A DNA stretch of 64,000 nt from Massalongia carnosa (lineage: Eukaryota), in the NCBI GenBank assembly GCA_965645245.1, contig OZ287067.1:1922001-1986000 (forward strand), written 5' to 3'. Under the pieces are notes generated by a model, which saw only the letters and a program-made list of their open reading frames with translations, did no database searches and was not told the origin of the DNA. A program made the translations under genes and the position numbers. Shown here one piece after another: positions 1,803 to 23,470 of the stretch. The first letter of the stretch is position 1; every line of letters begins with the position of its first letter.

Positions 1803-1992
1803 TAATACAATAGAACTGCCTTAGTACTGCGTCGCTCTACGAGCTGTCTAAGCCCCTTCGGGTTAGTCAATTTCGCTAAGCTCCTTCGGATTAGTGATTA
1901 AGATAGCACGTCTGAGCGCAAAATGACGTGTCCAGTTAAGCCCTTTCGGGTTAACAGGCTGACTACGCAGCACATCTGTAGAGCCCAAAACT

Positions 1993-2834
1993 TGCCTCAG
2001 TACCTCAGACTTGCCCGGCTAAGCCCCTTCGGGTTAACAGGCTGACTACGCAGCACTTCTGTAGCAAGTCTGAGCCCAACACTCAAGATTACGGTCAGAT
2101 ATTGTGATGAAGCGAGATAGTGAATAGATTTCTACCATTGCGCCACCTGTCCTTCCCGACCAAAAGGCACAATACTTAGTTCGCAGACCAAGCTCTATTC
2201 TACTATAACTGGGACTCCTGCTATGTTCGCTGTAGGTCCTGCCGTCCGCACCACGCTTGGTCGAACCGTTACAGATATGGCTTAACGATCCTGACAAGAA
2301 CGATTTCGACCTTATAGAACAACGTCACAACTTCATTGTTTCATGTTTGTAACGTCGTCGTCGCTTGATATGATCATGATCAATGTATTTTTGAATTTTC
2401 CGTTATAAATTTCAATCTTTATTTATGTTTATAACGTGCAGAGCAATTTTACATACATCTTGTTATTTTCGTTAAGTCGATTCTCGATTTCTATGCGAAG
2501 TGCAATCAGATTGCCCCACATGAACTTTACAACGAACAGGAATTTCAGGAAACTTTCTATACAAATTCTATACAAATTCTACTTGAATTCTTTCGAAGAA
2601 ATAGCCTGTTTCAAACGAAAAAGCAAGACGTCAAAATGTCAAAAAATCGCAATAATACACGATTTATTACGAATATCTGACCGTAATATTGAGTTTTGCG
2701 CTCAGACGTGCTATCGCAACCACGTTAGTCAGCAGGGACGCTAATCCGAAGGAGCTTAGCGAAATAGGCTAACCCGGAGGGACGAGGGGCTTAGACAGCT
2801 CCTAGAGCCCACGCACGTCTGAGGTACTGAGGCA
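1993..2834. mobile_element. Complete inner non-autonomous copy with 18-bp terminal inverted repeat and ~10-bp TSD
   Basis: TGCCTCAGTACCTCAGAC...GTCTGAGGTACTGAGGCA, flanked by GCCCAAAACT (1983-1992) and ACCCAAAACT (2835-2844). Confidence 0.8.
2103..2273. mobile_element. 171-bp solo LTR (family X, copy 1)
   Basis: TG...CA ends, 5-bp TSD GATAT (2098-2102 and 2274-2278), four more copies in the window. Confidence 0.9.
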
Positions 2835-3985
2835 ACCCAAAACTCAAGATTACGGTCAGATATTGACAAGAACGATTTCGACCTCATAGAACGATGTCAC
2901 AACTTCATTGTTTTCATGTTTGTAACGTCGTCGCTTGATATGATCCTGATCAATGTATTTTGATTTTTTCGTTATAAATTTCAATCTTTATTTATGTTTA
3001 TAACGTGCAGAGCAATTTTACATACATCTTGTTATTTTCGTTAAGTCGATTCTCGATTTCTATGCGAAGTGCAATCAGATTGCCCCACATGAACTTTACA
3101 ACGAACAGGAATTTCGGGAAACTTTCTATACAAATTCTATACAAATTCTACTTGAATTCTTTCGAAGAAATAGCCTGTTTCAAACGAAAAAGCAAGACGT
3201 CAAAATGTCAAAAAATCGCAATAATACACGATTTATTACGAATATCTGACCGTAATATTGAGTTTTGCGCGCTATCGCAGCCACGTTAGTCAGCTGGGAC
3301 GCTAATCCGGAGGAGCTTAGCGAAATAGGCTAACCTGGAGGGGCTTAGACGGCTCCTAGAGGCCACACGTCTGAGGTACTGAGGCAATAAAATTCAGCAT
3401 TACGGTCAGATATTTGTAATATGTATTAATCGTGTCAAGAAACTAGTAATCGAAGCGAGTCGCCTACTTGTCATGAAATCGAACCAACCCGATCCAGAAT
3501 CAATCCCGCAGATGAATCTGACTAAGCTCCCGTTCCTCTATTCAGCTTAGTCAGAATCTCATTAACTAAATCGAGTTTAGACCCTCTCAACGGCTTCAGG
3601 TCAAAGTTGTACCATCACCATCAAAGCGTACCAACGACAGGAGAACCTCATCTCCACCTTTTATCGTCAAACACCTCGTCAAACCTTCGTGCCGTACGTC
3701 TCCTAATAGGGGGAGATGAACACTGATCGAATCTTCATGCAAAGGGGTTCGAGACAAATATAAAAGGAAGGACAAGTTAATTAGATAGTTGACTCCTTGT
3801 CCGACGTCTTGTATAGCAATCCATCACCTAGCTATAGCCTTATTAATAAAGACATCTTGATCACCCAATCCAATTCCTAGGAACATTAGTTCAATCCCCT
3901 GCCCAGTCCTTGACATTACGTCGGACCTACATCGAAAGGTGCCTTTCATAGCACTAGCCCCTGTCCCCCCTCATATTCCACCATC

Positions 3986-5179
3986 ATGTCTTCGTCTTCA
4001 GAAGAGATGACCGTCCCCCAAAATCCTCTCATCGACGAGAACGTGAAGTTGTTTCAAAACCAGTTCCAAACCAATCCTGAAGCATTTGTCGCGGAAATAC
4101 GACGACTTCAAGACGAGGTGGCCCGGTTGCAGGCCGCCCCAGCTCCCGACCCCCCTATACCCACTCCAGCATCAACCTCGTCTCCCTCGTCCGTTCCGGC
4201 AATGGACCCTCAGATAGCTGCCCTCCTGCAGCTCCTTTTGACCCGGAATTCCGAGTCCAAAACCGATCTTCGTTCCGAAAAACTTCCCGACATCTCCGAG
4301 TACGATGGAGATGAAGCCAAGTTGGACTCCTGGGAACAGAGCCTGATTCAACGGATGCACGTTAATCATGATCGATACTCCACCGATGCCTCCAAGATTG
4401 CATACGCGGAGAATCGGCTCACCATCGGGAAACGAGCTCACAACCTTATGAATGCGTATCGAGTGGATGGCATTTGTAGACTCACCACCTTCTCCGAATG
4501 GCGTTCTGCTCTTCGCCTAGCCTGCGGCAACCCCTTCGAACAAGAGGATGCCCGTAAGTACCTTCGAGAAACCCTCAAGCAGGGCTCTCTGAGTTTCGAA
4601 GAGTACAACACTCTCTTCTCTCAGAAAAAAGACCGATCCAGAATGGAAGACGCTTCGTTGATTGATGCCATGAAGGCAAACATCAACTACTCCGTTCAAA
4701 CCGCGGCCGTCCACTACCGAGTCCCCGGCACCAATCTGGAGCCAATCACCTTCGACGAGCACGTCGCAATGTGGTTAAGCACGGACCGGAAAATCCGTCA
4801 GATCCGTCATCTGGCACCCAAGGCCACGACTCCGGCCACATCAGCTCCCGCCAATCGAAGAAACGGCACCAACCTTCCTGCTGCCCCTTTCCCCCGCACT
4901 GTCGTCAAGGGCACGGTCACCCCATCGATCCCAACCCCCGCCTTCCCCCCAGCTGGAGACCCCATGGACCTAAGTCAGGCCATGGCGGCTGTCAAAGGTC
5001 AGTCGTTGAAAACCGAGGGAGTAAGGAAGATCTGCGAGAATTGGAACCTGTGCTTCTATTGCAAATTGCAACACCTCGGGTCGGCCTCCGACTGTCCAAA
5101 TAAGCCTACCAAACGCCTTCGCAACATGGAAGTCGTCTCGACCCTCACTCCCGAGACTGACGACTCGGGAAACGTCTAG
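3986..5179 (+). CDS. gag: Gag of Gypsy element 1
   Basis: 397-aa ORF after the 5' LTR: EKLPDISEYDG, LKQG...F..Y, PMDL, and a degenerate Zn-knuckle CFYCKLQH...C. Confidence 0.9.
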   Translation: MSSSSEEMTVPQNPLIDENVKLFQNQFQTNPEAFVAEIRRLQDEVARLQAAPAPDPPIPTPASTSSPSSVPAMDPQIAALLQLLLTRNSESKTDLRSEKLPDISEYDGDEAKLDSWEQSLIQRMHVNHDRYSTDASKIAYAENRLTIGKRAHNLMNAYRVDGICRLTTFSEWRSALRLACGNPFEQEDARKYLRETLKQGSLSFEEYNTLFSQKKDRSRMEDASLIDAMKANINYSVQTAAVHYRVPGTNLEPITFDEHVAMWLSTDRKIRQIRHLAPKATTPATSAPANRRNGTNLPAAPFPRTVVKGTVTPSIPTPAFPPAGDPMDLSQAMAAVKGQSLKTEGVRKICENWNLCFYCKLQHLGSASDCPNKPTKRLRNMEVVSTLTPETDDSGNV

Positions 5180-8100
5180 ACTCTGCGCATCGTCGCGCGC
5201 AGAGCCCTATTTTAATTTCTTCTTGTCTGTTAGCCAACTCGTTTTCTCCTCCCCTTCAATCAAACACTCGTTTTTCCGCAGCCTCCGCTTTGGAGCTGTT
5301 TGAAACCGAAGAAGCGTTTCGAGATAGCCACCTAGTGGTATCATGTATCTTACGTTTAGGTAGATCTCGAATTCAAGCTCTCAATCTGATTGATTGTGGT
5401 GCATCTGGCTATGCATTCATTGACAAGAAGTTTGCGCAAACTCACCAAATCCCCCTTCATCCCCTCAAATACGCCCGACGCCTTGAAGGCTTCGACGGTC
5501 AGCCGGCTCTGACTGGAAATATCACTCATGTGGCCGAGGTAATCATGGACTTAAACGGACATGTAGAAAGATTATTCCTTTTCGTAACAGGACTGAAAAC
5601 CTACCCCATCGTCCTGGGACACCCGTGGTTGCGACGACATCAAGCTCTCGCTGATTTCGAGTCCAACTCTCTCTCCCTGTCTTCCTCTTTCTGCCTGGCT
5701 CATTGTAACCCTCATCCAGTCAAGGTGAAGGCCTACACGGGCGAGAAATTCCTATCTCCTGCGGAAAGTCAGGAAGTATGGGAATCGGAAAACTACTCGT
5801 CCAATAGTCAAATCCTGTCCGAAAAACCTGTCCTGTCCGATAAAACCACGCCGCGCGATAGTAAGACAACTTCTCTCGAAAATCAGGACATCAGTCGTAT
5901 CGAAAAAGCGATTGAACAGGGCGACTCACCGAATATCCGATATCGAAGTCCCTCTTCGTATCGCACCTCCACTCAGCGACATGCTGCCCAGCAGAATCGC
6001 AATCCTCCTGTTTTGGACGGCTGTGAAATCGGCGCCCTCAACTTCAACTATCTCGGACGAAAAAAGAGTCACGAGATGTTTGCTCTCTCCTTGAAAGAAA
6101 TGGATCACTTTCTCGGCCTGACTCAACCTGAACCTAAGCCTGAACCCAAACCCGAATCTCGCCTTCGTCAAGAGACTGACTGGGCACACTCGAAACCAAC
6201 CTACCAACCCAACCCCCGGTCCAGCCCTAGTGAAAAGAAATATCACTTAGCCCTGTTCCGTATGAACCAGGCTCTGACACAGTTATGTTCAGTGACCGAA
6301 CCCGAACCTCAACCCTTGACACTGCAATCATCAGTGACCGCCGAAGAACTGAACGCTTATCGTGAGCGAAAGAACGTCGACCCAGCCCCCCTTCTACCCA
6401 AACAGTATCACGACTTTCTGGATGTCTTCTCCAAAAAAGAATCGGACGTCCTGCCCGAACACCGACCCTACGACCATGCCATAAAGCTAAAAGAAGGCTC
6501 TCCAATCCCGAATCAAGCTCTTTATGGCATGAGTCGAACCGAAATCGAAGAACTCCGACGCTACCTTGATGAGAACCTGTCGAAAGGCTTCATCCGAGCT
6601 AGTAAATCCCCCGCTGCCTCCCCAGTCATGTTCGTAAAGAAGCCAGGAGGAGGACTTCGCTTCTGTGTCGACTATCGAGGCCTCAATGCCATCACGATTA
6701 AGAATCGGTATCCGCTTCCCCTGATCACCGAAACCCTGAATCGCCTGAGTCGGGCTAAGATATTCACCAAGCTGGACATTATTTCAGCGTTCAATCGGCT
6801 CCGCATCAAGGAAGGAGATGAAGAACTCACCGCAGTCAGAACCCGTTTTGGCCTCTTCGAATCCCTGGTCCTACCATTCGGCCTCTGTAACGGCCCCGCC
6901 TCCTTTCAACACTTCATCAATGATACTCTTCGAGAGTATCCCGACGACTTTTGCACGGCCTATCTAGATGACATTCTCATCTACAGCGAAATTGAAGGCG
7001 AGCATGAAATCCACGTCAAACGTATCCTCATCAAGCTGAGAGAAGCCGGGCTGCAAGTAGACATCACCAAATGCAAATTTCATATCACAGAAGTTGCCTA
7101 TCTCGGACTAATCGTAACCACCGAGGGAATCAAAATGGACCCCGCTAAAATCGAAACAGTAACTCATTGGCCAATACCGATCAATATGAAAGATGTACAA
7201 AGCTTTCTGGGATTTGCTAACTTCTATAGACGATTCGTATACGGCTTTAGTAAGATAGCCGGCCCACTGACGAATCTAACCAAAAAGGAGGTCAGCTTTC
7301 AATGGACTGACAAATGTCAACAGGCATTCGAAACTCTAAAAAAAGCTTTCACCTCGGAACTAATACTGATGCATTTCGATCCCGATCGTCCTATCATCGT
7401 GGAAACCGATGCTTCGGACTACGTCTCTGGTGGTATCCTTTCTCAGTATGACAACGAGAACGTGCTTCGCCCCATCGCATACTTCTCCAAGAAACACAAC
7501 CCGGCCGAATGCAATTATGAGATCTATGACAAGGAACTCATGGCCATCGTCCGATGCTTCGAAGAATGGAGACCGGAATTGGAAGGTTCTGCTCACCCCA
7601 TCAGCGTTATCTCAGATCATAAGAATTTGGAATACTTCGCTTCAACCAAACAACTCAGTCGTCGTCAAGCTCGCTGGTCCGAATTCTTATCCCGATTTGA
7701 CTTTAAAATAGTCTATCGACCCGGAAAAGCTGGTGGAAAACCAGATGCACTGACTCGTCGCTCAGGAGACCTCCCTAAAGAGGGGGATGAAACTGATGAA
7801 AGACATAAACATCAGCATCAAACCATCCTGAAAACTCATAACCTGGACGACGAAGTGGCGAAAAGTTTCTTATCCACGATTATCCTAGCCCCCGCGTTCA
7901 TCGAACAGGATCCCGAGTCCGTTGAACATGATCACGAGTTCATTGAACCTGAACCACAGCTGGATCAGCCTGCCGACCAAACCAATCCTGGCCAAGACCC
8001 GACCGACGTCCCAACTCAGCTGTTATGGGAACAAGCTCTGGAACAGGATCAATTCTCTCTGAAAGTTCTAGACATGCTTCGCAATAATGTCAGATATCAT

Positions 8101-9558
8101 AACGGCATTCAGCTAGCCGAATGTGAAGATAAAGAAGGGATTCTTTATTTTCGAAACCGTCGATACGTACCCAATTCGGATCGGCTCCGTCTCCGTCTCA
8201 TTCAACAGGCACACGACAGCGTAGCAGGTGGCCATCCCGGTCGTTCCAAATGCTACGAACTAATGAATCGATCATACTGGTGGCCCAGTATGCATCAAAC
8301 CGTCAAACGATTCATTCGTAACTGTCACACCTGTAGACGATCCAAACCATCCCGCCAACGATACCAAGGATGGCTACGCCCTCTGTCCCCACCCGAACGT
8401 CGATGGCGTGACGTTTCCATGGACTACGTAGGTCCGCTGCCTCCGAGCACCTTCATGGGTATAACCTATCGTTATATCCTCGTCTTCATCGATCGCCTTT
8501 CCAAGATGCGATATTTCGTCCCCACCACCTCCATGGAGGTAGAAGAGGCTGCTAACTCCTTCTACCAAAATGTATGGAAATTACACGGTCTCCCAGACGC
8601 CTTGATTTCGGATCGAGGCACCCAATTCACCTCCGATTTCTGGGACATCATGTGTAAACGGCTTAGAATTGATGCTAGGCTATCAACCAGTTTTCATCCC
8701 GAGACAGATGGCCAAACCGAGAGGGCTAATGCAACCATGGAGCACTATCTTCGGGCATACGTCAATTACATGCAAGATGACTGGGCCCAGTACTTACCCG
8801 GTGCCGAATTCTCCAGCAATAACACCGACTCTTCCAGCATTCTCGCCTCTCCCTTCCTGGCTAATTATGGACAACACCCCAGGGTAGGATTCGAACCCGA
8901 AGAGCCCCTTCCGCAAGACCTGACCGCCCAGGGAATCGCTAACCTGATCGCCGCCAATCGATTCGTAGACAAGATGCGAGACGTAGACACTCACCTACGA
9001 GAAGAGATGTTGATCGCGCAGGCCTCATACGAATCTTCCGCCAATGAGAACCGCCGTCCCTGTCCTCGTTATCTTGTAGGAGACATGGTATGGCTGAACA
9101 CCCGAAATATCCAGACAGCCCGTCCGGCAGCCAAACTGGACGATCGAAATGTCGGTCCTTACCGAGTCTGTAAGGTGTTCGCCAACCCTCTTGTTGTTCA
9201 ACTGGAACTCCCCGACACGGTTAAAATTCATCCGGTCTTTCATGTAAATCTGCTACAACACGACGCAGACGACCCCCTCCCAGGACAAATTCCCGAGCTT
9301 CGCGACCCAATAATAGCCGAAGATGGACAGCGAGAATGGTATGTCAACAGCATTCTGAACTCGAAACTGGACAGACGTTATCAACCTCCGCTTCTCAAGT
9401 ATTTCGTCAACTGGGAAGGACATACCCCCACCTGGGAGCCATTTCACCTACTAACCAACTGCCAACAAGCTCTGGACGAATTCCACGAAGCCTATCCTGG
9501 TGCATCCGGCCCACATCTCACCCCCTGTTCCATTCCTCGATGTCGCTGTCATGAATAA
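5173..9558 (+). CDS. pol: Pol (protease-RT-RNase H-integrase-chromodomain), in the -1 frame relative to gag
   Basis: LIDCGASG, LRFCVDYRGLN, YLDD, ETDASD, NYEIYDKEL, HHCC zinc finger, SDRGTQF, FHPETDGQTER and a C-terminal chromodomain. The frame is open from the slippery site G GGA AAC (5167-5173). Confidence 0.95.
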   Translation, partial: RLDSAHRRAQSPILISSCLLANSFSPPLQSNTRFSAASALELFETEEAFRDSHLVVSCILRLGRSRIQALNLIDCGASGYAFIDKKFAQTHQIPLHPLKYARRLEGFDGQPALTGNITHVAEVIMDLNGHVERLFLFVTGLKTYPIVLGHPWLRRHQALADFESNSLSLSSSFCLAHCNPHPVKVKAYTGEKFLSPAESQEVWESENYSSNSQILSEKPVLSDKTTPRDSKTTSLENQDISRIEKAIEQGDSPNIRYRSPSSYRTSTQRHAAQQNRNPPVLDGCEIGALNFNYLGRKKSHEMFALSLKEMDHFLGLTQPEPKPEPKPESRLRQETDWAHSKPTYQPNPRSSPSEKKYHLALFRMNQALTQLCSVTEPEPQPLTLQSSVTAEELNAYRERKNVDPAPLLPKQYHDFLDVFSKKESDVLPEHRPYDHAIKLKEGSPIPNQALYGMSRTEIEELRRYLDENLSKGFIRASKSPAASPVMFVKKPGGGLRFCVDYRGLNAITIKNRYPLPLITETLNRLSRAKIFTKLDIISAFNRLRIKEGDEELTAVRTRFGLFESLVLPFGLCNGPASFQHFINDTLREYPDDFCTAYLDDILIYSEIEGEHEIHVKRILIKLREAGLQVDITKCKFHITEVAYLGLIVTTEGIKMDPAKIETVTHWPIPINMKDVQSFLGFANFYRRFVYGFSKIAGPLTNLTKKEVSFQWTDKCQQAFETLKKAFTSELILMHFDPDRPIIVETDASDYVSGGILSQYDNENVLRPIAYFSKKHNPAECNYEIYDKELMAIVRCFEEWRPELEGSAHPISVISDHKNLEYFASTKQLSRRQARWSEFLSRFDFKIVYRPGKAGGKPDALTRRSGDLPKEGDETDERHKHQHQTILKTHNLDDEVAKSFLSTIILAPAFIEQDPESVEHDHEFIEPEPQLDQPADQTNPGQDPTDVPTQLLWEQALEQDQFSLKVLDMLRNNVRYHNGIQLAECEDKEGILYFRNRRYVPNSDRLRLRLIQQAHDSVAGGHPGRSKCYELMNRSYWWPSMHQTVKRFIRNCHTCRRSKPSRQRYQGWLRPLSPPERRWRDVSMDYVGPLPPSTFMGITYRYILVFIDRLSKMRYFVPTTSMEVEEAANSFYQNVWKLHGLPDALISDRGTQFTSDFWDIMCKRLRIDARLSTSFHPETDGQTERANATMEHYLRAYVNYMQDDWAQYLPGAEFSSNNTDSSSILASPFLANYGQHPRVGFEPEEPLPQDLTAQGIANLIAANRFVDKMRDVDTHLREEMLIAQASYESSANENRRPCPRYLVGDMVWLNTRNIQTARPAAKLDDRNVGPYRVCKVFANPLVVQLELPDTVKIHPVFHVNLLQHDADDPLPGQIPELRDPIIAEDGQREWYVNSILNSKLDRRYQPPLLKYFVNWEGHTPTWEPFHLLTNCQQALDEFHEAYPGASGPHLTPCSIPRCRCHE

Positions 9559-9679
9559 AACTGCTTCGCAGGAGCTCAGCTCTTGAAAGGGGAGCTACTG
9601 TCATGAAATCGAACCAACCCGATCCAGAATCAATCCCGCAGATGAATCTGACTAAGCTCCCGTTCCTCTATTCAGCTTA

Positions 9680-11488
9680 ACGTATTTACTAGCCAATCGG
9701 GCCAGCTACCCATTCGGGCCACCCACCAAAACCAACACCAAAATTTCAACTTTTTCGCCTTGCATCTTGTACCACACCACCATGGCCTCATCAAATGAAA
9801 CCATCATTGATGTTAATAGTTCTGATACTAGAATGGAATTAGCTATCGCTGAGTTGAAAAGAAATCCTGCTATATCTCAGCGTCAATTAGCTAAGGAGTA
9901 TAACGTGCCTAGATCTACCCTTCAAGCACGTATTCACGGTCGGAAATCAGCCAAAACCTATCATGAAGAGTCTCAACGATTATCAGTAATTGAGGAAAGG
10001 GCTCTGATTGGCTGGATAGAACAGATGACCGAGTGGGGCTGGCCCCCACGCATACAACATCTAGAAAGCATGGCAAAAAATCTTCTGAATGCGAAGGGCG
10101 ATAGCGAGCCTTTGGGTCATTGTTGGTATCAGAATTTTTTAAAGAGACACCCTGATTTCAAGTGCAAACACAGTAGAAATCTGGATCAAGTCCGAAAAGA
10201 TGCTGGAAACGTTGATATCATAAAAGACTGGTATCAATTATACTCGACTACCCGAACGAAGTATGGAATAGCCGACGGAGATGTATACAACATGGATGAA
10301 AAAGGGTTTGCCATGGGCATCGCCGATAGCTCCAAAGTGTTAGTAAAAGTCACTGAAGCTGAAGCATTCAACGTCCATTCGGGTAATAGGGACTGGGTTT
10401 CAATGATTGAATGTGTTTCATCTTTGGGATCCGTTTTACCAGCTTATTTTATATTTCAAGGAGTTTCGAGTACAGCAAGCCTGGCTAGGTCCTATCAAGG
10501 ATAATAGGACCACCTTACAAGTCAGTCCCAATGGATGGACCACCAACGAAATAGCACTCCATTGGCTGAAAGAGGTGTTCGATTTGCATACTCGACATAC
10601 GCAGGGCGTTTATAGACTTCTTATACTCGATGGACACGAAAGTCATGTATCTATCGATTTTATGACTTATTGCGAGCAACATAAAATCATACCGCTTTGT
10701 TTGCCCCCTCATTCAACTCATCTATTGCAACCTCTGGATGTGGGCGTTTTTTCACCTCTAGCTAAGGCCTATAAAAAACGGGTAGCAAATCACTCTCGCT
10801 ATGGGGCCGTCAACGTTTCGAAGATAGATTTTCTAAGTTATATTCAGGAGGCTAGAAAGGAGGCCATGACTATTATCAACATCAGCTCTGCATGGCGAGG
10901 TGCAGGTCTAGTACCACTCGATCCAAATTATGTTCTAGCTAAAGTATCGAGATCAAAACCTTTTCCGCGTGATATTAACGCTATCAGTACTCCGAAAACA
11001 ATCAAGAAAATCAGAGAGACTAGTGAGACCCTTCTACAAAATATAACTCCGTCTCTTCGAGGGCCTGTTGAACAGCTGAAAATCATAGCTCTTAATGCTA
11101 TTGCTGATAAAACCATTCTAACACAGTCAAATCAGGAGCTTATTGATAAACAAAAGACTCGACGTACAAAGCAGTCTAGAAAGGGTTGTGAAAAGGCTAA
11201 GGTGCTGACTGTGGGTGCAGCACGTACAATGATGGAAGAAAAGGAGAAGGCGGCTGAGGCAATAGCCAATCAAAAGGCTAGATATCATGCCTTAAACGGA
11301 AAGGTAAAATTTGCGAAAATAGTATATAAAGAGATGGGTATGAATATTGATATTTTCATGTAATTATATTGGAAATAGATGATGATAAAATCATGTAATA
11401 ATGGTTGTTAAGTTGATAAGATGATTTGGTCAAATTTTTGGTGGGGTGGCCCGACTGGGTAGCTGGCCCGTTTGGCTAGTAAATACGT
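9680..11488 (+). mobile_element. Fot1/pogo transposon inserted in the 3' LTR of Gypsy 1
   Basis: TIR ACGTATTTACTAGCCAA(T/A)CGGGCCAGCTACCC at both ends; TA duplication at 9678-9679 and 11489-11490. Confidence 0.95.
9782..11363 (+). pseudogene. Fot1-type transposase with a single frameshift near 10465
   Basis: HTH (YNVPRSTL) and YNMDEKGF, then GWTTNE, LILDGHESH and HLLQPLDVG in a second frame. One extra T in GGAGTTTCGA. Confidence 0.9.
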
Positions 11489-11943
11489 TAGTCAGAATCT
11501 CATTAACTAAATCGAGTTTAGACCCTCTCAACGGCTTCAGGTCAAAGTTGTATCAAAGCGTACCAACGACAGGAGAACCTCATCTCCACCTTTTATCGTC
11601 AAACACCTCGTCAAACCTTCGTGCCGTACGTCTCCTAATAGGGGGAGATGAACACTGATCGAATCTTCATGCAAAGGGGTTCGAGACAAATATAAAAGGA
11701 AGGACAAGTTAATTAGATAGTTGACTCCTTGTCCGACGTCTTGTATAGCAATCCATCACCTAGCTATAGCCTTATTAATAAAGACATCTTGATCACCCAA
11801 TCCAATTCCTAGGAACATTAGTTCAATCCCCTGCCCAGTCCTTGACACTACTAGTGTCCGACACCTCAGTGACGCATATAGCTTAGTGACGCACTTTTCC
11901 CATTTTACCTACCATTTTACATACAATTTGTGGACAACAATGG

Positions 11944-13790
11944 TTATGTAGAATTTAATTGACTATGACGCTGGTAAAACAGCTTTGCTTGCCTGGGCAT
12001 AGATCGAGCGATTGCTTTATACTTTCGATCCAGGGCCAATTGCTTCTTTTCAGCAGCTAGTACGGCACGTTCATAGGCCTGCTTGGTCTTTTCCACCTCA
12101 TTCTGAGTGCGTTTTATAACCTTCGCCCGTACATCTCGAACGGTTATGACTCCTCCCTTCTGGGCCACCTTTCCATCAAGTTTTCGTCGTGCTGTCTTCG
12201 CGATGGACAGCATCTGATTGGCCCGAAGGTCTCGCTCTGAAATCTGACGTGCATGAGCACTGGAGATGGAGCCTTTCACAAATCGTTCCACATGACAGTC
12301 CCACTCGGCATTCAAAACATTGTACTTCTTCAGGCTTTTCCGAAGCTTATTTCCATAATCAACAACCTCTTTGGCTGTGGAAGGTGTTCTGGCGAGCAAT
12401 GGAGCTGATGGAAGTGGGGGCGGGGTAGCAGGCCTACGAGTCTGAATAGCCTCCACTTTGCGGAGTACCACTTCTGGATTATAAGGCACCAGACCCGTGT
12501 TTCTGAATGAAGCTAGTATGGTAGTTGACGTGAATGTTTGATTTCGCATGATCTGAAAAATCGATAGAAAGTCGAGTTTATCGAAATCAGACCCTCCACC
12601 CCGCATCAGTTGATCAATGGCTTCGGAATGATAATGTTTGAAAGGCTGAAAACATCCTACATCCAATGGCTGAGTGAGATGTGTGGAATGAGGTGGAAGA
12701 CGAAATAATTCGATTTTTTTTCGTTTGGCATAGGTAAAGAACTCGAATGTCATATGAGATCCATATCCATCCATGATGAGCATGCGCCATGCACCTACCT
12801 GCCCCTTTCGACTGCGTTTGTCGAAATGTTTCAACCAATCGAGAGCTAAATCATCATTGGAATAGCCGGTAGGACTGGTGGTCAGGAGAATATCATCATC
12901 CAAGTCATTGTGTTGGGCCCATTTCTCCAGTACCCATGCACCAGCGATTATGATCATGGGGGGAATATCACGCCCCCCTGCACTAATACATTCATACGAG
13001 GTGATATATTCTCTATTGTCCGAGTCCGTCAACAGCAAAGACTTTCTAGAATGAGTTGAAACAACCCAATGAGCTCGCCAACAGCCAATTCGAAAGCCTG
13101 TCTCGTCCATGTTCCAAATATCCTCATCCGCTACTCCAAGAGCCTCGCGAGCAGCCCGATATGTCTCGAAATATTTCAATACATCATCGACGTTGTGTGC
13201 ATGTTTTCGCTCGACGGCTAGTGGTTTTTGTTTGCGTTTGAAGAATTGAGGATGTCGAGTCAGAAAACGTTTGGTCCAGGCATTGCTGACGTGGGGAGAA
13301 GGAGTGAAAACGTCTGAATGAGCCTCTTGAAGTAGATTGTGACGAAGCGAGATAGTGAATAGATTTCTACCATTGCGCCACCTGTCCTTCCCGACCAAAA
13401 GGCACAATACTTAGTCCGCAGACCAAGCTCTATTCTACTATAACTGGGACTCCTGCTATGTTCGCTGTAGGTCCTGCCGTCCGCACCACGCTTGGTCGGA
13501 CCGTTACATAGATAATTTGCTGCCGCCCGAATCATTGAAATTCCGGCAGATTGTTCGGCTTGATCGAGCATTTTAATAGATTCACAAAGAGCTAATTCTT
13601 CTTCATCAGACAGAGATTTGGGGGCAGAACGACCGATTTTCGAACCACCTCCATTAAGTCTTCTCTGTAGAGTACGAATGTCCACGTCGTACTCCAAAGC
13701 TACCGCGCGCACACTTCGAAAATCACCCGTGTCCCACGCGTCAATAGCTTCAAGAATTCGATTCTCCTTACTGAAAGATAAACTAGACAT
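11944..13790 (-). pseudogene. pogo/Fot1 transposase interrupted by a solo LTR
   Basis: N-terminal HTH (13790-13514) and DDE core (WNMDETGFRIG, LIMDGYGSH, HLTQPLDVG) are separated by the insertion at 13338-13508. Confidence 0.9.
13338..13508. mobile_element. 171-bp solo LTR (family X, copy 2)
   Basis: TG...CA ends; TSD TAGAT (13333-13337 and 13509-13513). Confidence 0.92.
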
Positions 13791-13893
13791 GATGTGGTGG
13801 AGTGATTACGTGGTGAAGCTGTATGCGTCACTGAGGTGTCGGACACTAGTAGGCGACTCGCCTCGATTACTAGTTTCTTGACACGATTAACTA

Positions 13894-15815
13894 ATCGTGC
13901 TAAATCACTTTCGGAATGGAAGGGCATCCCTTAGTGCTTACCATCTCAATGACGCATTGGGCTCAATGTCGTTTTTTTCACCATCTACCCACCATCTTTG
14001 ACACGTAAACACCCCACACAATGCCTTCTGATTCTTATTATAAACTCGAAAATCGTATTGAAGAGGCCATCGACGCGCTTCATGATGGTTGGTATAAGAA
14101 TTGCACCAAGGCTGTGCGTGCATACGACGTGCCCATTTGTCAACTTCAAAGACGATGGAATAGGTCCAATTCCAAAAGCACCCGCCCCAGCACCAACAAA
14201 GCTCTTACGGAGGAGCAAGAGGAGGCAATTCGCGAGTATATTGATCGATGTGACCAGTTCAATATGTGCGCTAGGCCAAAGATGATTGTGGGGGCGGCGA
14301 ATTATTTGATTCGTTCAGAGGATCGAAAGGTGGGGCATCAGTGGTTCAATCGATTTCTTGAACGAAATCCACAGTACAACAAGCGCAAAAAAAAGCCCCT
14401 GGCGATGGATAGAAAAAACAGTCACAGTCTCACAGATATGCGGGATTATTTCTATAAATTGAAGGCTGCTATTGAGAACAAGGGCATTACCGACGTGGAC
14501 GTTTGGAACATGGATGAAACAGGCTTTCGCATTGGCTGTGGGTGGGCTCAAATGGTGATTACCATGGACCCGAAAAAGCCTTTGCGAATGACGGACCCGG
14601 ACAATCGTGATTATATCACGACGGTGGAGTGTATAAGTTCTGGAGGGGAGGTGATTCCCCCTTTGATCATCATTTCAGGGGTGCAGATTTTGCATAAATG
14701 GTGTCAGGAAAATGATCTACATGATGACATTCTCATTGGCACCAGCAACAGTGGTTATTCAAATGATGATTTAGCTATGGACTGGTTGAATCACTTCATC
14801 GAGCATACGAGTAGCAAAAGGCAAGGTGCATGGCTACTTTTAATCATTGACGGTTTTGGATCGCATATGACCATCCCATTTTTTTAACTAGCCACTGCCA
14901 ACAACATCGTTTTGTTTCGATTACCAGCTCATTCCACTCACCTCACCCAGCCATTGGACGTAGGTGTTTTTCAACCGTTCAAACATTATCACACCGAGGC
15001 AATAGATCGGGCTGTCCGGTTGGGGACTGTCAGTTTGGTAAGCTGGAATTTCTCGCTGCATTTCAGGGCTTCCGAAATGAAACGTTCAAACCATCCACAA
15101 TCCGTCATGCGTTCAAATCAACCGGAATCGTACCGTTTGACCCAAACGTTGTCCTGGACAAAATTCGAGAAAAGGAGGCACGATTGAGGGAGTCGGTCAT
15201 TCGAACTCCCTCCCCTCCCCCCGCTTCCATTGAATCAACGCACACCCCATGGTCCCGAATCGGTTGTTCGGTACGGTCGAAAGCTTCAGAGAGCCATTGC
15301 CAAAGCGGGACCCAATGATAAACTTGAGGTTCAACAGGTTGAACGGTTCGTTCGCGGTTCGGTGGCATCCGCTCATGCTCTGGATTTGACCGCTCGAGAC
15401 CTTCATGCCATGCAGGAAGCAGCTTCATCACGTCAGAAACGAGCCGTTCTTGGTGGACAGGTGGCCTCTCAGGGTGGAATCATCAAGGTAAGTCAGTGTA
15501 GGGAGCTTTGTTCAAAAAGAAAGCAGAAGGAGGAGGAAAAGGCGAAACGGAAGAAGGCTAGAGAGGAGAAAGCGGCTGAGAAAAAAAAAGATTCTCAGCT
15601 GAATCAAATAGCCTTTCTCATCAACGACACACCTTTGGTAGATTAGTCAATTATCTACGTATCAGAATTGAAACATTCACAATCGGGGTTGTTTTGATGA
15701 TGTGGTGAATTGTTTGGTAGGTAGATGGTGAAAAAAACGACATTGAGCCCAATGCGTCATTGAGATGGTAAATACTAAGGGATGCCCTTCCATTCCGAAA
15801 GTGGTTTAGCACGAT
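13894..15815 (+). mobile_element. pogo/Fot1-like transposon with ~95-bp TIRs
   Basis: TIR ATCGTGCTAAA(T/C)CACTTTCGGAATGGAAGGGCATCCC...CACCATCTACC at both ends, TA flanks. Confidence 0.93.
14021..15646 (+). pseudogene. pogo/Fot1 transposase with an in-frame stop (14885-14887) and a frameshift (~15025)
   Basis: WNMDETGFRIG, LIIDGFGSH and HLTQPLDVG spread over three ORFs; paralogous to 11944-13790. Confidence 0.9.
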
Positions 15816-15997
15816 TAAGTCATATCATATCTGACGAAGAAGCTTATCCGAGGCCGATTTTTTTTTCGGGGCCGCGGGGTTGAGATTTAGCGTAAAAAAT
15901 GCTGGCTTGGCGGTCCTTCAAAAAGTGGACTTATCGCCTGTGACTTTGGGGTATAAACCGACTTATAGGCGTGACCCTGCAAAATCGTCACGCTGTA

Positions 15998-18900
15998 TAT
16001 GGACAATATCGCCCGTGACCAAGCTCCATACCACGATTTTCTCTCCTCGACCCATTCAGTCGAACTGCAAAAAGCCTGCCTGTCCCCGTTTTGCGCCGCG
16101 AGCGACTTGCTGGTCAACGAGCGTTCTACATACCACGGATACCCTCTTTGGCGGCCGCACGATGGACCCGGGCCCCTCCGCTGCAGGCCCCGCTGTCGCA
16201 GATCCGGAGACGGCGGCGCCTCTTTCTTGGCCTCCTCCTGAGGCTTACGTTGATGTCGAGGCCGTCAAGCGTGAGTCTCAGGCCTATGCCACCCACGGCA
16301 ACAACGAGGCCGCCATGGCCGCCACCATGAGGCGCGTCCGCGGGATGCGGGAGGAGGATCGGAGGGCCAACACCCTTAAGGCGTACCGCAGGTGCTGGCA
16401 TCTGTGGGAGGTGACTACGATAGGTATGCCCTGCAACTTTGGGCCTACGCTAACATCCTACAGAAGTGGTGCCGACGGCGCAATTTTCTTGACGGCGTCC
16501 TTGTGTGGGAGCGGAAGATGCTCCTCTTCCTCGAAGAGGTCGTCCTCCGCCTGCGCTTCGTCCCACGTCCCAAGTTCACAGGCGCAGCAGCGCAGGCCAG
16601 GCGGCGGGATCAGGATCGCCAACGGCAGGCTAAGCGCCGCGCGTTGAAGAGGGGGAAGGGGAAGGCGATGGAGGCGGTGGAAGCCTCGCCAGCGGTAGAG
16701 GGAGAGGAGCTGGAGGAGGTGGAAAAATTCGAGGAATTCTCCGACGGCGAGGAGCTCGTTGAGACGGTGAGTCGGCCCCTGAACTCGAATTCAGGGATAG
16801 AATCATCTTTTTGTAGCTTACTGACTCGTCTTGCAGCAAGCCGACGACCCTTTATCCCGGCCCCTGGCGCCCGATAGCGTGGAATCGGGCTACGTCTCTG
16901 CCCTCTGCGCCCTCTTCGATGGCCAGCATCTCGAAAAGAATTTGGTGGTGCCCCATCCCAGAGGGAAAGCCACCAAAGCCCTGATGACGCGCTTACGCAT
17001 CGATTGGAGCGCTTTCAAACGGGCCTCGTTCGAGGATCGCGCGATCCACGGCCTCACCGACGGCTACACGATTGAGCAGGCCGCTCAATTTTCGGCAATG
17101 CTGCTCGCCGGGGGCAAGGTTTTGGGGGAGGAGGGCGTGGCGGGCGGCGAGTGGCACCTCCTGCGGACTAGCCTCGACTTCCTCCTAATGCATTCGATGA
17201 TGCTGCGGGGGGAGTCAACGCGGAGGGCTGAGCTATCTGACCTCTGCGCCTACGACCTCCCTAACGAGGGGTCCGAATGCCTTGCGTTGATCCTTCGAAT
17301 TGGCTAGGGCAAGAGCATTCCTCTGGCGGACGGGGGCAACTCGCGCCGCCAGCATTACTATGGTGCTTTGCGGAGCAGAGATGTCGTCCTTTGTCCTCTC
17401 GGCGCCCTCGCCCACTGGCTCGTCTTGTGCTAGGACCTCCTCCTGGAGAAGCGGCCGGACTTCCGGGATCGATCTTAGTGGTATTTCACGAAGGAAGGTC
17501 ATCTCCGGGAGCCTGGCGCGATCTAAGGAGGAGATCTCCGACAAAACACAGGCCCGATGGATCAAGCCGGCTTTGGATGCTGTCGGCGTCGACAGCTCCA
17601 AGACGGTCCACACCATGCGGCAGTCCTCGTCACGGCTGGCCGACATGTGGGAAGTCCCCGCGGACCAGGTAAGTACTCTACGATTCATGGCCCCTTATAC
17701 TTACTAGCGTTACCCTTATATCAACTACTACAGATCATGAGAGCAGGCGGATGGGAACGTGGCGTCTGGGCCACTAACTACCTCACTCGCCTGCCGCGTG
17801 TCTACATGCGTCGCGCCGCCGGCTTTGGCAACTCCCCCGGGAGTTACTTTTTGAGAAGAGGACACTCACCGGATCTGGCCCTGCAGCGGCAGGTGTGGCC
17901 TTGGGTGGATGACGCTCTGGCGGCGTACAAAGGCGGTCTTTTTCCTGATGCGGATAAGGCAGGGAAGAAGGTTCTGGAGATGTTGCTGCGGCTGCGTTGT
18001 GTCTTCCTGCAAGACGCAGCGCTTCTACAGCCTCAGTTTCCTGAGCTTTCGCTCTGGAGACACCAAGTCTTCAGAGATCCCCTTTGGCCTGCGTTCGCGG
18101 CGAAGATACGGGAGTTGGAGGCTGTAGAAAAGGAACCTTTGCACGTGGCCATCCACGGCGTGCTGCCTCTTGTTACTGACTCCGTTGATGGCGTCAGTAA
18201 CAAGGTCAGCGGTGTTGCAATTAAGCAAGATCGCACGCTCAACGCTGTGGAGAGGTTGCTCTCCGGGCAGAGCCAGCTGACGACCACCTTGAGTGCGCTG
18301 CCGGCGGCAAATGCCCAGGAGATAGCTCGAGTCCTGGGTTCGCAGCTCTCACAATTGCAGGCCACGGTCTCGACGCTGCTTCGATCCTTTCTGACGGTTC
18401 CTGTGGAGGCTGTTCGGAGGGACTGGCTGCTGGACGAGGCTTCTTGGCGAGGGCAGGCGACTGCTCTTGCGACGGCGGCGCACTCCGTTGGTGAAGAGCC
18501 TGCTGCGTCGGCGTCCTCGTACGTCGACGCAGTCGCTTCTCTCCTTCCTACACCTTCTGTCGTCCTCACTTCCGTCCCCGGAGAGACGTCTACGGTCTCT
18601 GCGCCCTGTGGCTCCCTCCCCCAAGAGGGGCCGCCTCAACGTCCTCCTGGCTGCCCGGCGGAGCCCATTCTCGGCGGCGTGACCTCGGCGGAGGCGGTGT
18701 TGGAGGAATTCGCGTTGGGGACGTTGGTGGAGGGGGTCCAGCGTGCATCTCTCGACGAGTTGGACCGCCTCTTTGGGGCTAAGTGGAGGTACACTCCTGC
18801 CCTGAGGCAGCGGTTCTACGTCAAGAGACGGATCCGTCGGTACCTTCAGGGGAAGGCGAATGAGCAGGGGAGGGATCCGTGGGATATTGCGCGGGAAGTT

Positions 18901-19531
18901 GACAGTTTGGGGCTCTCTGGACATCAGATCTCTAAGCGTATTGACGCTGGAGAGGATCTGCTTCGTAGATAGGCCAATGGTACCTCTCTTTCTCTCTACG
19001 AGTACTAGTCATGGAGGCCTGTAACACCGTTTCTACTAAGAAGCGATCACTCGTAATGTTCCTGTAGTACCTCCTTCTCGTTTCTGTGACTGGGTGGGAC
19101 ATCTTGTGACGAGGCGTGCAACTGCACCACGTATCGCGCCATCAGCGCTACGTTAATTCTACTCGGGGTAAGATGTTTCTTCTATTCAGAAGAAGCTCTT
19201 TTCAGCAAACCCAGTTTCAAAATTCTAGCAAAACCCCTTTGTGGTTCGATTGCGGAGCGCAAATGTCGACCTTCGCAACGACCAGGGCCAAGCAGGGCGT
19301 CAGTTTTGCACGGCGATCCTACACTTCACAGCACATCAAATCAGACAATTCAGGCGCGGGTCTACTCGTTGAAGGATGCTCTATTTGACGGTTTAAATTG
19401 CTTCAAAATAAAATTTTTTCTCGCTGCGCGAGACTACAACTTCAGGTTACTAAGGCTATTTGGCGTGACAAGAAACAATCGCGGGATTTAGGATTTTAAA
19501 CGCCGCTAAGTGTCACGGGCGATAATTATGG
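15998..19531 (+). mobile_element. Crypton (tyrosine-recombinase DNA transposon, CryptonF-like)
   Basis: TATGG direct repeat at 15998-16002 and 19527-19531. 13-bp subterminal inverted repeat TATCGCCCGTGAC (16007-16019) / GTCACGGGCGATA (19512-19524). Encloses a GC-rich YR gene. Boundaries are inferred from these repeats. Confidence 0.78.
16162..18972 (+). pseudogene. Crypton tyrosine recombinase with NDC10-II-like region and C-terminal GCR1_C-like domain; 3 introns, 3 nonsense codons, 1 frameshift
   Basis: NTLKAY...W, YVSAL, LRGESTR (catalytic R), CPLGALA, HTMR (HxxR), AGGW...NYL (Y), WPW, FLQDAA, and LDELDRLFGAKWR. Introns at 16411-16463, 16767-16836 and 17669-17733. TAG stops at ~17305, ~17431 and ~17476; AAGG duplication at ~17491. 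Confidence 0.88.
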
Positions 19532-20088
19532 CTTATCGGACATTGAGAAGTAGACAAACGCACCCCACTAGGAGGATGCTGTTGAGCACTCTGTTCGGTG
19601 AAAAAATTCCCGATTCTAACATGACAGATCATGGACATCGTTAGAGAGGCGTAGGAATTTAGTGGACGAGGTGCACGAGTTGGAAGAGTGATAGGGTTTA
19701 AGAAAGAGGAAGTGGAGTTGAATGAAGTGAGTGATAAGGTGATGAGCGAGGGGAGCATGGGGCGGACGAGAGGTGTTTAAATGAAATTCCTGCGAGCATG
19801 CCCATCACCTTCCAGAATAACTAGCTGAAGCTGAACCAAACACCATTTTCTGAGTATTTAGCATTTACTCAGCAAGCTAGACTCGGATTTTTAGTGTGAA
19901 TTTGATAAAGATCTTAGAAGTTTTGGTTGGTGATAGTTTCTTCTTTTGGTTTCCGGATGAGACGGTATATAAGCATTCAAGAGGGGATACCAAGGCTTAC
20001 AAAACAGAGTATTGCCAGGAAGGTGGAGATATTCCGCGGCCGACGGAATAGCCCCCTTCAAAACCATAGGAAAAATCGGTTTATAGTC

Positions 20089-21586
20089 TTATCTGTTGTC
20101 CTGCCTGAACACCCATAATGCCAGCTTATGCCTTACAAGTAGCCCTATCAATCCCGTCAAAGCCTGCATTGCCAGTATATCAATTGCAAGCCGATCTTCT
20201 TTCAAGGGACCAAACCAAAGAAGCCATAAATTTAGAATTGTGAGATTGGAGGACTGGGTAATCTGGCCTTTTTCATCCGTTTCAATCTTGACCAAAGGCA
20301 AAGGTAGGTTCGCAAGAAACTTCAGAGTCCATGCTATGAGCGTAGATGGGGGGTGTTGCCATTCGGTCGCAGATGGCTCGAGAAGGCCCGACCGAGCGTT
20401 GAAGTGCGGAAGACGATGCCTTGGACATGGTATTACCCGAAACAGTTGTGGTGCGGAGTATACAAAATTGATAATCTGCGGTATGAACAAGAGCAGTAGT
20501 GTTTTGCTAAAATGTCCGAGAATCCCAACGATTGCGAAGACCATGCCTGCAAAATAGCAATATGTGTCACCAACAAACACTTTAGCTGGATACCAGTTGT
20601 GCCACCATAGAGCCAATGATACACCCAAGAACGGGAGGAGCAGATAAATTGAAAAAAGATGTGGATCCGTTGCTGGATGAGGCTCCGGACTGCTTTGTGC
20701 TGCGTACAAGGAAGTTATGTCATTGATTACAAGAAGAAGACTGATGACCAGAGACTGTGAAACCTCGATTCCATTTATACCGGCAAGGATATTGATGCTG
20801 TTCGGACAAAATATAGCGATAGCAGCCATGTAAGCGTAATACAGCCATCCAAGATCGACCATTGTTCCCAAGTAAACCTCGAGATGAACGGGAACAACCA
20901 CGTTAGTAACGCCAAAATCGACAAAATAGACTACGAGTATCGGAATAGACGCGAACGCTGGGATGAAGAACTTATGACGCCATCGGATATCGAATAGGTC
21001 GTCGCCGATGCCTAAGAGAACAACGGATTGCAAAGACAAGATGGCGGATAAATAAGACGCCAACTGTTTCAAGGCTTAGTTTTGCTTACGGTCTAGTGAG
21101 GATAGTGCTATCACCTTGCTGTGGGGGAATCGATGCAGAATGCGACCCGTCTCGAGCTCCTGACGTTCTATTACGACATCTCTATTGCCACCTCCTGAGG
21201 TGGCGGCTACAATATCTTTGTAGAAAGGAAAAGGAATGAAAATAATGATTATCAGAAGATAAACCACGGCGCACACAGCGCCCATTGCCTCAGGACTGCA
21301 TGATCCAAAATTTAGTACCCCAAATATTTGCATATCAAACGTGATTGACGTACATCTCCACCCTTTTGATCTTTGCCATGTCCCGGCCCTTGAGACCAGC
21401 CTTCATAAAAGCATTCCCCAGCCATCGTATAAGGCTGTACGTAAACGCAAACGCGATGCCGCTCAGCGCGAGTGAGACTATCAGTGGCTCACCTTCCCCT
21501 TGAAATGAATTCGCGACTATGCCAAAACAGGCCACGGAGAGCAGACTGAGGCTTGATGTCTCAGTTCTGCTCAAAGATTTGGTCAT
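20089..21586 (-). CDS. ALG7: UDP-GlcNAc:dolichyl-phosphate GlcNAc-1-phosphotransferase (DPAGT1/GPT)
   Basis: GRDMAK...IPEAMG, LLGIGDDLFDIRWRHK, FCPNSINILAGINGIE, VFVGDTYCYFAG, GHFSKT and PCPRHRLP. Introns at 21353-21296 and 21114-21064. Confidence 0.96.
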
Positions 21587-22507
21587 TGCGAACTAGATAA
21601 AAGATCCGATGGTGGATAGAAACCCTGGGAGTACATTGAGACTTGTAACGTGATCTTCGAATAAGCTAGGTGGCTAGGCTTGGTGGCTAGGTAGGAGCGT
21701 AGTAATCTTCAAATGCAGTAGGACTTCCCCTTAAAGGCTTCTTCTTTATTTTAAAAATACGTAACTAACAAAACGGTCAGATTCAGCCATAATCGATAAA
21801 CCATTCCAGAGTTTAACATACAGTAACGTTCCCTGGTATCTTAGTACCATATGGAGTACGTATGGAGTACTTGGTCGATCTTCCTTCTGTCGTCGAGCTA
21901 CAATTGCTCTTCTTACTACCTCTCTTTCTTGCTAATTTGCTATTTCGCTATCTGTGCTGAAACGGAAAAACAGAGCGCAGAATGTGACGGAGTGTAAAAG
22001 GCATTAGACAGTTGCCTCAGTACCTCAGACGTGCTGTGGCTCAGCCTTCGCCTTTATTAACCTTTTCCGGTTAACTCACCGCTAACTTATTTAGCCTACA
22101 AGTCTAACTTTTTATAGTTAGACTTTACTTACTAAGTTCGCTGTGCCAGCACGTCTGAGGGCAAAACTCAAATAATACAGGCAGATTTGCGTTATGAATG
22201 AGAAAATGTTAAAATACCAAGCCGCCTTACCCGATTAAGCGTAAAATATCAACTCGATTGTGTTATACCATCCCATCGTTTTCTATGTGTGTTATTTATG
22301 TGTTTTCCAACTACACGACAGACTATGCGCGCTGTAGAACGCCATCAAGGAACAATGAGCGCGCTTTTTAACCGCGATGCAAGTTAGACAAAAGGCCCGG
22401 ATCTCAGTCTACAATGGACATCTAGTTGAGTCACGAAAATAGTAAGAGAATGACAGCTGCAAGCGGTCATTGATTCATAATTAACTTGTCATCTCTATAG
22501 CTAGACT

Positions 22508-23470
22508 ATGTACGGCAAAGCTAGGATCGAGCGGCAATCATCCTTCATGAACAGGGTTGGACCTGGGTCGCGGAGGCCCTTCGAGCGGAGCTCAATGCAC
22601 TGGTTGCAACGGCCGCATTTGGGGTTTTCCACCCACCGTCGGAGACTGACGAGCTGGGCACCTTAAATAGCTTCAAGGGTGCCGCATCGGTCATCATGAG
22701 TAAGGCGTCACGATGGCTAGATCCTATTAAGCGCGTCTGTTGTGATGCCCACCGAGACGAGTCCACTCATCCTCAGCGCGCTATTCCGGTCGGGCGGCAG
22801 ATAACTATATTGTCCCTCTTTTGTCACATGTTGCGCCCGAATACATCAATAAATTTTCAGAGCGTCATGGGCCTTTATATCTATCAGGGTGGCGCCAGGC
22901 GCAGAGTTCTGGATACTTTATGTCACCTTGGCTTGACAATGTCGTATTCCACTCTTCAACGGCACATGTCAAGCTTAAGTGACGAAGCGAGGCGAAAATT
23001 AAGGACGATAGGGCGGGCTTCAACTACTGTTGTAACCTATGATAATTTTGTTTTTGCAGAAGGCCGAAGAGGCGAGAGAATCGGTGACGTAAGATAGTTT
23101 CAATCAATTACGACCGCTTTGATATTTGAAGGACAGGGCCTTGGGGTAACGGTCTTGAGACAGAATATGTGGCAACCTGAGAATTATCCTTTGTCCGCCA
23201 TAGGACTCGCACTAAGATTGAAACCAGATGACATAGACGCACAGGTAAGCATCGACCACTTTTCCAAGCGGCTTACTTGAAACTGATGAAATGTGGACGA
23301 AGATTCAAATTCATCATTTCGAGTCGGCAATCCAAGCCCTTTACAATGCTAAATTCAGCGACTTCAAGTTTCCTCGGGTTACATCCATGCCTGTGTTGAA
23401 AAGACTGAATCGCCTTCGAACGAAGTATCATCCGTTGAAGTCGGTTATGAAAGACGAAAGCACAACTGTT
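22508..23470 (+). pseudogene. Academ/DUF6589-type transposase N-terminal fragment
   Basis: NFQSVMGLYIYQGGARRRVLDTLCHLGLTMSYSTL...VVTYDNFVF...*FQSITTA...HPLKSVMKDEST. The family is recognised by motif only. Confidence 0.65.

Follow-up and report, generated by a model that had tools for sequence, protein, structure and literature searches.

Folded transposon ends in the window

The window analyzed here is a 64-kb stretch of the Massalongia carnosa genome (assembly GCA_965645245.1, contig OZ287067.1, positions 1,922,001–1,986,000) that contains several ends of a family of DNA transposons we refer to as AcademH-like. The ends of these elements are conserved fold-backs, in which an outer arm close to the tip pairs with an inverted inner arm. 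All positions are those of the window; J denotes the last base of the inner arm, and end types are named by family followed by left (L) or right (R).

Three ends open with TTGCC, at 1992 (+), 2835 (-) and 22012 (+), and have a stem that starts at position 12–13. The initial annotation assigned an internal inverted repeat to each of these termini, and all six arms are present as described (2004–2014/2064–2074, 2701–2711/2813–2823 and 22023–22036/22147–22160). The three ends fold as DNA, with z-scores relative to dinucleotide shuffles of -2.7/-2.2, -2.4/-1.6 and -7.7/-6.7 for the two strands of each, and the small hairpins noted earlier at 1848–1866 and 22057–22125 are confirmed. The count of three intact termini is borne out but is not the full complement, as the window holds five ends: another at 3387 (-) has an inner arm short by 8 nt (z +0.6), and one at 1816 (+) is decayed and has lost its outer arm (z -1.0).

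The decayed end (1816–1921, +) is of an older left type and retains its hairpins and an inner arm at 1906–1916. Next to it (1925–1991, +) lies a right end in truncated form, which belongs to an outer non-autonomous N copy and was the target of a nested insertion. The nested element, also a non-autonomous N copy, spans 1992–2835 and is 844 bp long (typical copies are 682 bp), with another repeat interrupting it near 2101–2273; the 8-bp target-site duplication CCCAAAAC is present on its left at 1984–1991 (+) and on its right at 2836–2843 (+). Its N-R end (1992–2074, +) is composed of a 12-nt tip, the outer arm, hairpins, a Yap1-type site at 2041–2051 and the inner arm, with one hairpin unit missing. 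Its N-L end (2701–2835, -) has a tip, an outer arm (2823–2813), four hairpins, a Yap1-type site at 2733–2723 and an inner arm (2711–2701). The remainder of the outer copy (2836–3387, -) terminates in the N-L end with the shortened inner arm. Further to the right, the B2-L end (22012–22160, +) contains hairpins and a Yap1-type site at 22127–22137 between its arms. An internally deleted B2 copy has left DUF6589 transposase fragments at 22528–23467 (+), 53–55% identical to the intact family A protein, and there is a convergent RecQ-like helicase fragment at 23463–23825 (-) with 69% identity.

Gene content and classification of the family

The genome scanned comprises 52 Mb in 25 contigs, its gene content is that of a fungus, and the 18-base end motif is present in it in 263 exact copies. 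The 254 distinct ends retrieved fall into the types A, N, B1 and B2, left or right, with one outlier in addition. Family A is 6.0 kb long and carries two convergent genes, coding for a DUF6589 protein and a DEAD/Helicase_C protein. The match to DUF6589 (PF20231), which we take to be the Academ transposase, has an E-value of 2e-62, and residues D146 and E346 are invariant in transposase exon 2 among 40 sequences; no relative of solved structure was found for this protein, and its atlas matches are DUF6589 clusters only. The helicase attributed to the family by the initial annotation is real and RecQ-like, with DEAD and Helicase_C domains and best PDB matches to RecQ and WRN (E 1e-16). Thirty-two of 84 transposase exon matches span at least 476 of the 506 residues at 97–100% identity. 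Named relatives are found in lichen-forming ascomycetes and Fusarium, and in the metagenome a convergent helicase lies beside the transposase match at 13 of 80 loci.

All families of this genome have a perfect 19-bp terminal inverted repeat (TIR). The target-site duplications of 87 candidate end pairs are 8 bp in 57 cases, 7 bp in one and 9 bp in one, with no exact duplication in 28, and the duplicated 8-mer is variable in sequence. Among five pairs examined in relatives, two have 9-bp duplications and three have none; metagenome family M5 is a relative with duplications of 9 bp. For AcademH the duplication is 9–10 bp in the accessible text of PMC10045372. The helicase and the TIRs fit the AcademH label given earlier but the duplication does not, and because 8 bp misses the 9–10 bp of AcademH we name the family AcademH-like and do not place it within AcademH.

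Neither protein nor TIR searches gave prokaryotic or viral relatives. Four pattern matches in prokaryotic assemblies were rejected as such: two are chance matches with 5-bp stems, L369 consists of two head-to-head IS630-type genes, and the fourth, L372 (G002:C89) from a Deltaproteobacteria bin, is on a contig that is in fact fungal, with a HET gene. L372 represents a further family, a 0.7-kb non-autonomous element of the same kind with both ends folded. Sly1-1 (PMC4592977) and the telomeric RecQ genes (PMC4522978) were also considered and, as presented in the accessible parts of those papers, are unrelated to the family.

One B1 copy (L041:890-2738) has inserted open reading frames that replace most of the transposase, one of them with a PhyH dioxygenase match (E 4e-5). 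Public sequencing runs assigned to four organism codes, as well as a lichen metagenome, contain 0.73–0.96 of the words of family A (L040:259-6284), and family A contigs from one of the organisms in those runs are at least 99% identical, which may reflect either recent horizontal spread or mixed samples. A single public-run contig over helicase exon 1 (L040:5234-5946) has an adapter-like loose end near the intron and is possibly cDNA.

Architecture and covariation of the outer stem

For the metagenome scan, 80 of 136 related loci were kept, with transposases 24–63% identical, and these contain 55 matches to the tip pattern as compared with 2 per shuffle. Twenty-one end types were defined and 18 scored, leaving aside the outlier, the T-variant and one duplicate; the 18 come from this genome and from metagenome relatives whose transposases are 25–64% identical. 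All 18 share a single layout: a 12–13-nt tip, the motif CTCAGRC, an end-specific pairing extension and an inverted copy 54–149 nt further on. Between the outer and the inverted inner arm there are 2–4 hairpins. At stem positions 6–11, 101 of 108 pairs are Watson-Crick, whereas permuted partners give 60.6 ± 5.2 and a maximum of 84 in 20,000 permutations; positions 8–10 are occupied by three or four different pair types. With eight representatives the true pairing alone, among 40,320 permutations, attains 44 of 48 pairs. The inner anchor was picked for best pairing, which introduces a slight bias toward this result; when 44 chance occurrences of the tip pattern were scored as a control with the anchor left free, no stem exceeded 5 bp. 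Covariation, the check proposed with the initial annotation, is found at the outer stem across the 18 end types.

Comparison of left and right ends serves as a test against plain repeated binding sites. In B1, B2, M2 and M5 the left/right identity ends after 7 bases, and the ends form stems of 9–18 bp with their own inner arms and of 7 bp across ends; M6 is mixed, and A and N are uninformative. End-specific stems of 16–18 bp and multibranch interiors are maintained across transposases that are 25–35% identical. Architecture and covariation together show that the ends are conserved fold-backs, and some form of selection on the fold-back is very probable.

The pair for which a compensatory G-C to T-A change had been suggested contributes little to this, since the comparison is between two different end types and T-A is a minority state, carried by the N-R end in the window; T is found at this position in 4 of 59 N-R ends. 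The true fixed swap at the same pair is C-G, present in 13 of 13 B right ends.

Folding of the nine main end types gives z-scores from -2.2 to -7.5, with -1.8/-0.5 for the outlier and -0.4 to +1.8 for adjacent interior controls, and the region between the arms folds better than shuffles (z ≤ -2) in 13 of the 18 types. Predicted inner pairs that differ between B1 and B2 include five double Watson-Crick changes and four single ones, and one inner pair of family N occurs as a series of G-C, G.T and A-T states, while whole hairpin units are freely duplicated and lost. The TAA...TTA stems described as shared are typical of the families of this genome but absent or rare in several relatives, and were rejected as a universal motif. 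The broader proposal that structure rather than sequence is conserved stands for the outer stem beyond the invariant 7-bp core and for some inner hairpins, but the CTCAGRC core is conserved too, a Yap1-type site has a fixed position in all end types of this genome, and some interiors fold no better than chance.

Fused mini-elements and a wall of breakpoints

Colinearity is broken within 400 nt in 99 of the 254 ends, and for 45 of these the break falls in the 20 nt that precede J. Fusions of left to right ends, here called mini-elements, provide 36 distinct junctions from 35 events, corresponding to 70 sides. Sixty-four sides lie at or before J-6 (12 at J-7 and 5 at J-6) and none from J-5 to J+11, forming a sharp wall with 39 breakpoints on one side and 0 on the other when 12 nt are counted in either direction. 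One side falls at J-8 to J-6 in 19 of the 35 events, and many joints are blunt or contain filler. The mini-elements often retain the 8-bp duplication and have intact tips, and they are not amplified, as the 36 junction strings are distinct and at most two pairs have common breakpoints; because they stay unamplified with intact tips, the inner site seems to be required. Free movement of the inner segment was rejected, since the outer part is present at all but 1 of the 209 inner sites. Metagenome truncations inside the fold are at J-9, J-6 and J-57. No joints were seen in contigs from 4 of 21 public runs, a result that carries no evidential weight, and among the public runs listed as carrying the family none is of RNA.

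In about a dozen ends missing the exact motif (L349-L367 and the window end at 1816), the first 20 nt of the tip contain small deletions, and several of these tip-deleted ends abut the J-7/J-8 position of another end.

Insertion at a fixed distance from a Yap1-type site

In 46 of 237 flanks the sequence TKASTMA is centered at -31 to -27 from the element, compared with 0.8 expected per 5-nt window; some flanks are in repeated targets, such that the insertions are independent and the sequences are not. MTKASTMA is the Yap1/Cap1 consensus, the Yap response element, in the accessible text of PMC3111461. The insertions lie 29–30 bp from the Yap1/AP-1-type site, on one side only. Of the 57 elements bounded by a duplication, 31 match an 11-mer derived from the flanks (up to two mismatches allowed) in exactly one flank, the left one in 14 and the right one in 17, and none match it in both; control positions match in 3 of 1185 cases. 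E-box, CCAAT and GATA motifs give no signal at the target position in this genome.

Within the ends themselves, all 10 end types of this genome have the Yap1-type site at J-27/-28, in one case with 3 mismatches. Because of this position, a staggered cut is predicted over J-6 to J+1; self-insertions have precisely this duplication, and the predicted top-strand bond, J-7|J-6, coincides with the wall seen in the scars. The nested element in the window provides an example: the site GCTGACTACGC (1958–1968, +) has its center 29 bp before the element, and the outer copy was struck at this distance (1958–1991) even with its inner arm short by 7 nt. Likewise, L149 has lost or replaced its original inner arm and was still struck at -29. 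Since copies without an intact inner arm continue to receive insertions, self-insertion is motif-driven, and we rejected it as proof of structure as it tracks the Yap1-type site.

The terminal hairpin in the long terminal repeat of a gypsy element (3518–3560 in the window, and its copies) carries a Yap1-type site and is repeatedly targeted. In metagenome flanks the Yap1-type site occurs in 3 of 53. A CACGTG/CACATG-type box is seen by eye ~25–30 bp from insertions in 4 of 6 flanks of metagenome family M1 (L265, L266, L267 and L279), hinting at a different targeting site. Insertion at a set distance from stress-response (Yap1-type) sites would connect the elements both with oxidative-stress promoters and with other repeats bearing such sites, and it suggests a tool for sequence-directed insertion.

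A model for excision and its alternatives

We propose, with somewhat less than even confidence, that AcademH-like elements excise by a long staggered cut accompanied by helicase unwinding and folding of the ends. The transposase would make two nicks, one in the transferred strand at the tip and a second in the opposite strand, ~50–150 nt inside and just before the inner GTCTGAG; from the position of the wall, this second cut is predicted at 2067|2068 in the N-R end, 2708|2707 in the N-L end and 22152|22153 in the B2-L end. The stretch between the nicks would be opened by the RecQ-like helicase, which would be needed because the nicks are so far apart (47–154 nt). Both freed strands could then fold, which would block re-annealing, and on the transferred strand the variable extension may act as a toehold, restoring duplex CTCAGAC beside a 12–13-nt 3' tail. 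Mini-elements would be donor scars from the joining of two 3' flaps, and a single protein geometry may set both cuts, that of the target at 21 bp from the Yap1-type site and the inner one at J-7|J-6. We infer the nicks and their strands, the role of folding, the flap joining and the shared geometry from the features of the ends and scars. The full combination, a helicase-driven 50–150-nt staggered excision with folded single-stranded ends and one Yap1-type site serving for the target (21 bp) and for the element's own cut, is put forward a little more tentatively. Of the two intermediates suggested by the initial annotation, we infer the single-stranded end, and nothing in the data singles out a cruciform. 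A P-element-like logic acting over 47–154 nt would be the simplest reading that joins the fold, strand, scar and target data.

Several observations weigh against this proposal. In the scars, 6 of the 70 junction sides lie beyond J+11, and the metagenome wall rests on two cases (J-9 and J-6) with the third at J-57; the ends from the metagenome also do not have the Yap1-type site at the same place. The interiors of B1-R, B2-R, M2-L, M2-R and M3 fold no better than shuffles, and a G.A mismatch is tolerated in the stems of N, an amplified family, this being the state of the pair discussed above in 29 of 31 scored N-R copies, with T-A in the other two (the window copy escaped the pattern used for scoring). 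The loops, on the other hand, count in its favor: on strand-neutral Watson-Crick stems, G...A loops number 14 of 46 on the transferred strand (with its 3' end at the tip) and 2 on the other, with shuffles giving 9% and 7%, and 9 versus 2 of 38 when distinct loops alone are counted, but this bias was spotted first and tested post hoc, in about six lineages. The accessible text of PMC13037366 describes GNA loops as extra-stable mini-hairpins in DNA and not in RNA. Again against the proposal, G.T pairs show no strand asymmetry (29 versus 27), and the strand test of G.T versus A.C gives no bias. One of its predictions also fails: terminal regions have no excess of variants over interiors (0.134 versus 0.127 per site) and no elevation of G>A changes (24/224 versus 54/388), a negative mutation spectrum that bears no mark of a long single-stranded state of the transferred strand.

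The main rival, which we regard as rather unlikely, accommodates that negative spectrum directly. It posits ordinary cut-and-paste at the tips, with the inner GTCTGAG as a second, inverted site that the transposase must bind as duplex and at which sister-chromatid gap repair stalls; end joining would finish the mini-elements, and the stems would serve repair only or grow by template switching. The invariant 7-bp core with further left/right likeness inside J, the Yap1-type duplex site at its fixed position and the one-sided junctions are all consistent with this, and T-A repair of the mismatch on different backgrounds suits template switching. Aborted synthesis-dependent strand annealing with end joining is also the usual P element outcome in the accessible text of PMC2895639. 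However, the wall is base-exact in three families and the joints are mostly blunt or have filler, in our judgement sharper than a stall predicts, and repair would have to traverse the identical outer site. Moreover, multibranch interiors and end-specific stems of 16–18 bp persist across the 25–35% identical transposases, and the helicase is left without a role.

The use in self-insertion of a bond matching the wall, with the duplication at J-6 to J+1, raises the possibility, improbable in our estimation, that the inner site serves as a target for the element's own 3'-OH ends, with the Yap1-type site directing circle formation or hairpinning over a long range. This could be a normal step or frequent auto-integration, with folding or cruciform extrusion uniting the tip and the inner site, and a similar junction is present in metagenome family M2. 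But self-insertion tracks the motif and not the stem, copies lacking inner arms are still struck at -29, and a double-strand cut of the target should sometimes leave scars reaching up to J+1, which are seen on 0 of 70 sides.

An absence of function, in which mutation bias homogenizes the inverted repeats and deletions are favored at any long inverted repeat, would agree with the free duplication and loss of hairpin units and with the tolerated stem mismatch; it is nonetheless very improbable, given an identical register from the tip in 18 of 18 types and one more fungal family, the failure of mini-elements without inner arms to spread, and the short stems (≤5 bp) at the 44 chance tip matches. 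Least probable of all, and remote, is a fold acting in RNA as a guide or regulatory structure in promoter-proximal or antisense transcripts: the top strand has UUCG/UCCG at some loops, which have an RNA tetraloop role, but covariation favors a 3-nt loop register (CCC/GGG to TCC/GGA), the stems are nearly all Watson-Crick without G.U bias, Rfam gives no match for the ends, both ends are upstream of convergent genes, and the wall is left unexplained.

If excision does occur by a long staggered cut, this peel-and-fold pathway would account for the RecQ gene that AcademH-like elements carry. It makes predictions at the level of single bases, namely a nick at J-7|J-6, a stem that is required but free in sequence beyond 7 bp, a required helicase and a defined scar shape, and these are directly testable as the family is young, with 32 near-complete transposase copies at 97–100% identity.

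Other elements in the region

A second TIR family, 1.3 kb in length (L077:1594-2921; also L029, L097, L344, L045 and L190), has CACGCG termini and a Tc1/IS630-like open reading frame with a DD37E motif by manual count. Its duplications are 5 bp rather than TA in 4 of 4 complete copies, and it has inserted repeatedly into hairpins of AcademH-like ends. In the window, an open reading frame at 17527–18972 has NDC10_II and weak GCR1_C matches, a pattern that fits a Crypton-type tyrosine-recombinase element. A 3.3-kb tandem duplication at 34800–41834 contains Pif1 helicase fragments and is possibly a Helitron remnant, and the window also includes several pogo/Tc5-type DDE_1 elements and three gypsy-type retroelements.

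Relationship to known systems

The accessible portions of the literature on AcademH/Academ structure, DUF6589 and Yap1 targeting (including PMC10799480, PMC10045372, PMC5751038, PMC9587614, PMC12210899, PMC8290104, PMC4522978 and PMC4592977) contain no account that we found of fold-back ends, scars or the target motif; this coverage is incomplete, and Kojima 2020, supplements and Repbase may show the termini. Like AcademH, the family consists of fungal TIR DNA transposons that encode a RecQ-like helicase (DEAD/Helicase_C) beside a putative DDE transposase, and it differs in its 8-bp duplication, in 57 of 59 exact pairs as against 9–10 bp (PMC10045372, accessible text). KolobokH is a fungal DDE transposon with a RecQ helicase as described in the available text of PMC9587614, but the family here has a variable 8-mer duplication and a helicase on the opposite strand, and is not placed within it.

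As reported in the accessible parts of PMC7776569 and PMC2895639, the P element makes a 17-nt staggered cleavage that leaves 17-nt 3' tails at the donor, with the transferred strand looped out and doubled back. The 8-bp duplication is common to both; the P element lacks a helicase gene, its stagger is 17 nt where 47–154 nt would apply here, and in the AcademH-like ends the pairing is within the transferred strand. No Pfam or PDB match to a THAP/P-type transposase with a GTP-binding domain was found in the family, and the suggested likeness to the P element is mechanistic only.

The ends of IS200/IS605 and Helitron elements have subterminal hairpins of single-stranded DNA and a helicase dependence, but these elements use HUH chemistry and have neither symmetric TIRs nor such a duplication; the AcademH-like ends are symmetric, and their G...A loops change strand from one end to the other. 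Ty3 and Tf1, examples of factor-directed integration, likewise insert at a constant distance from a transcription-factor-type site, although here it is a DNA transposon that inserts, and the candidate reader of the site is a host basic leucine zipper (bZIP) protein or a protein of the element.

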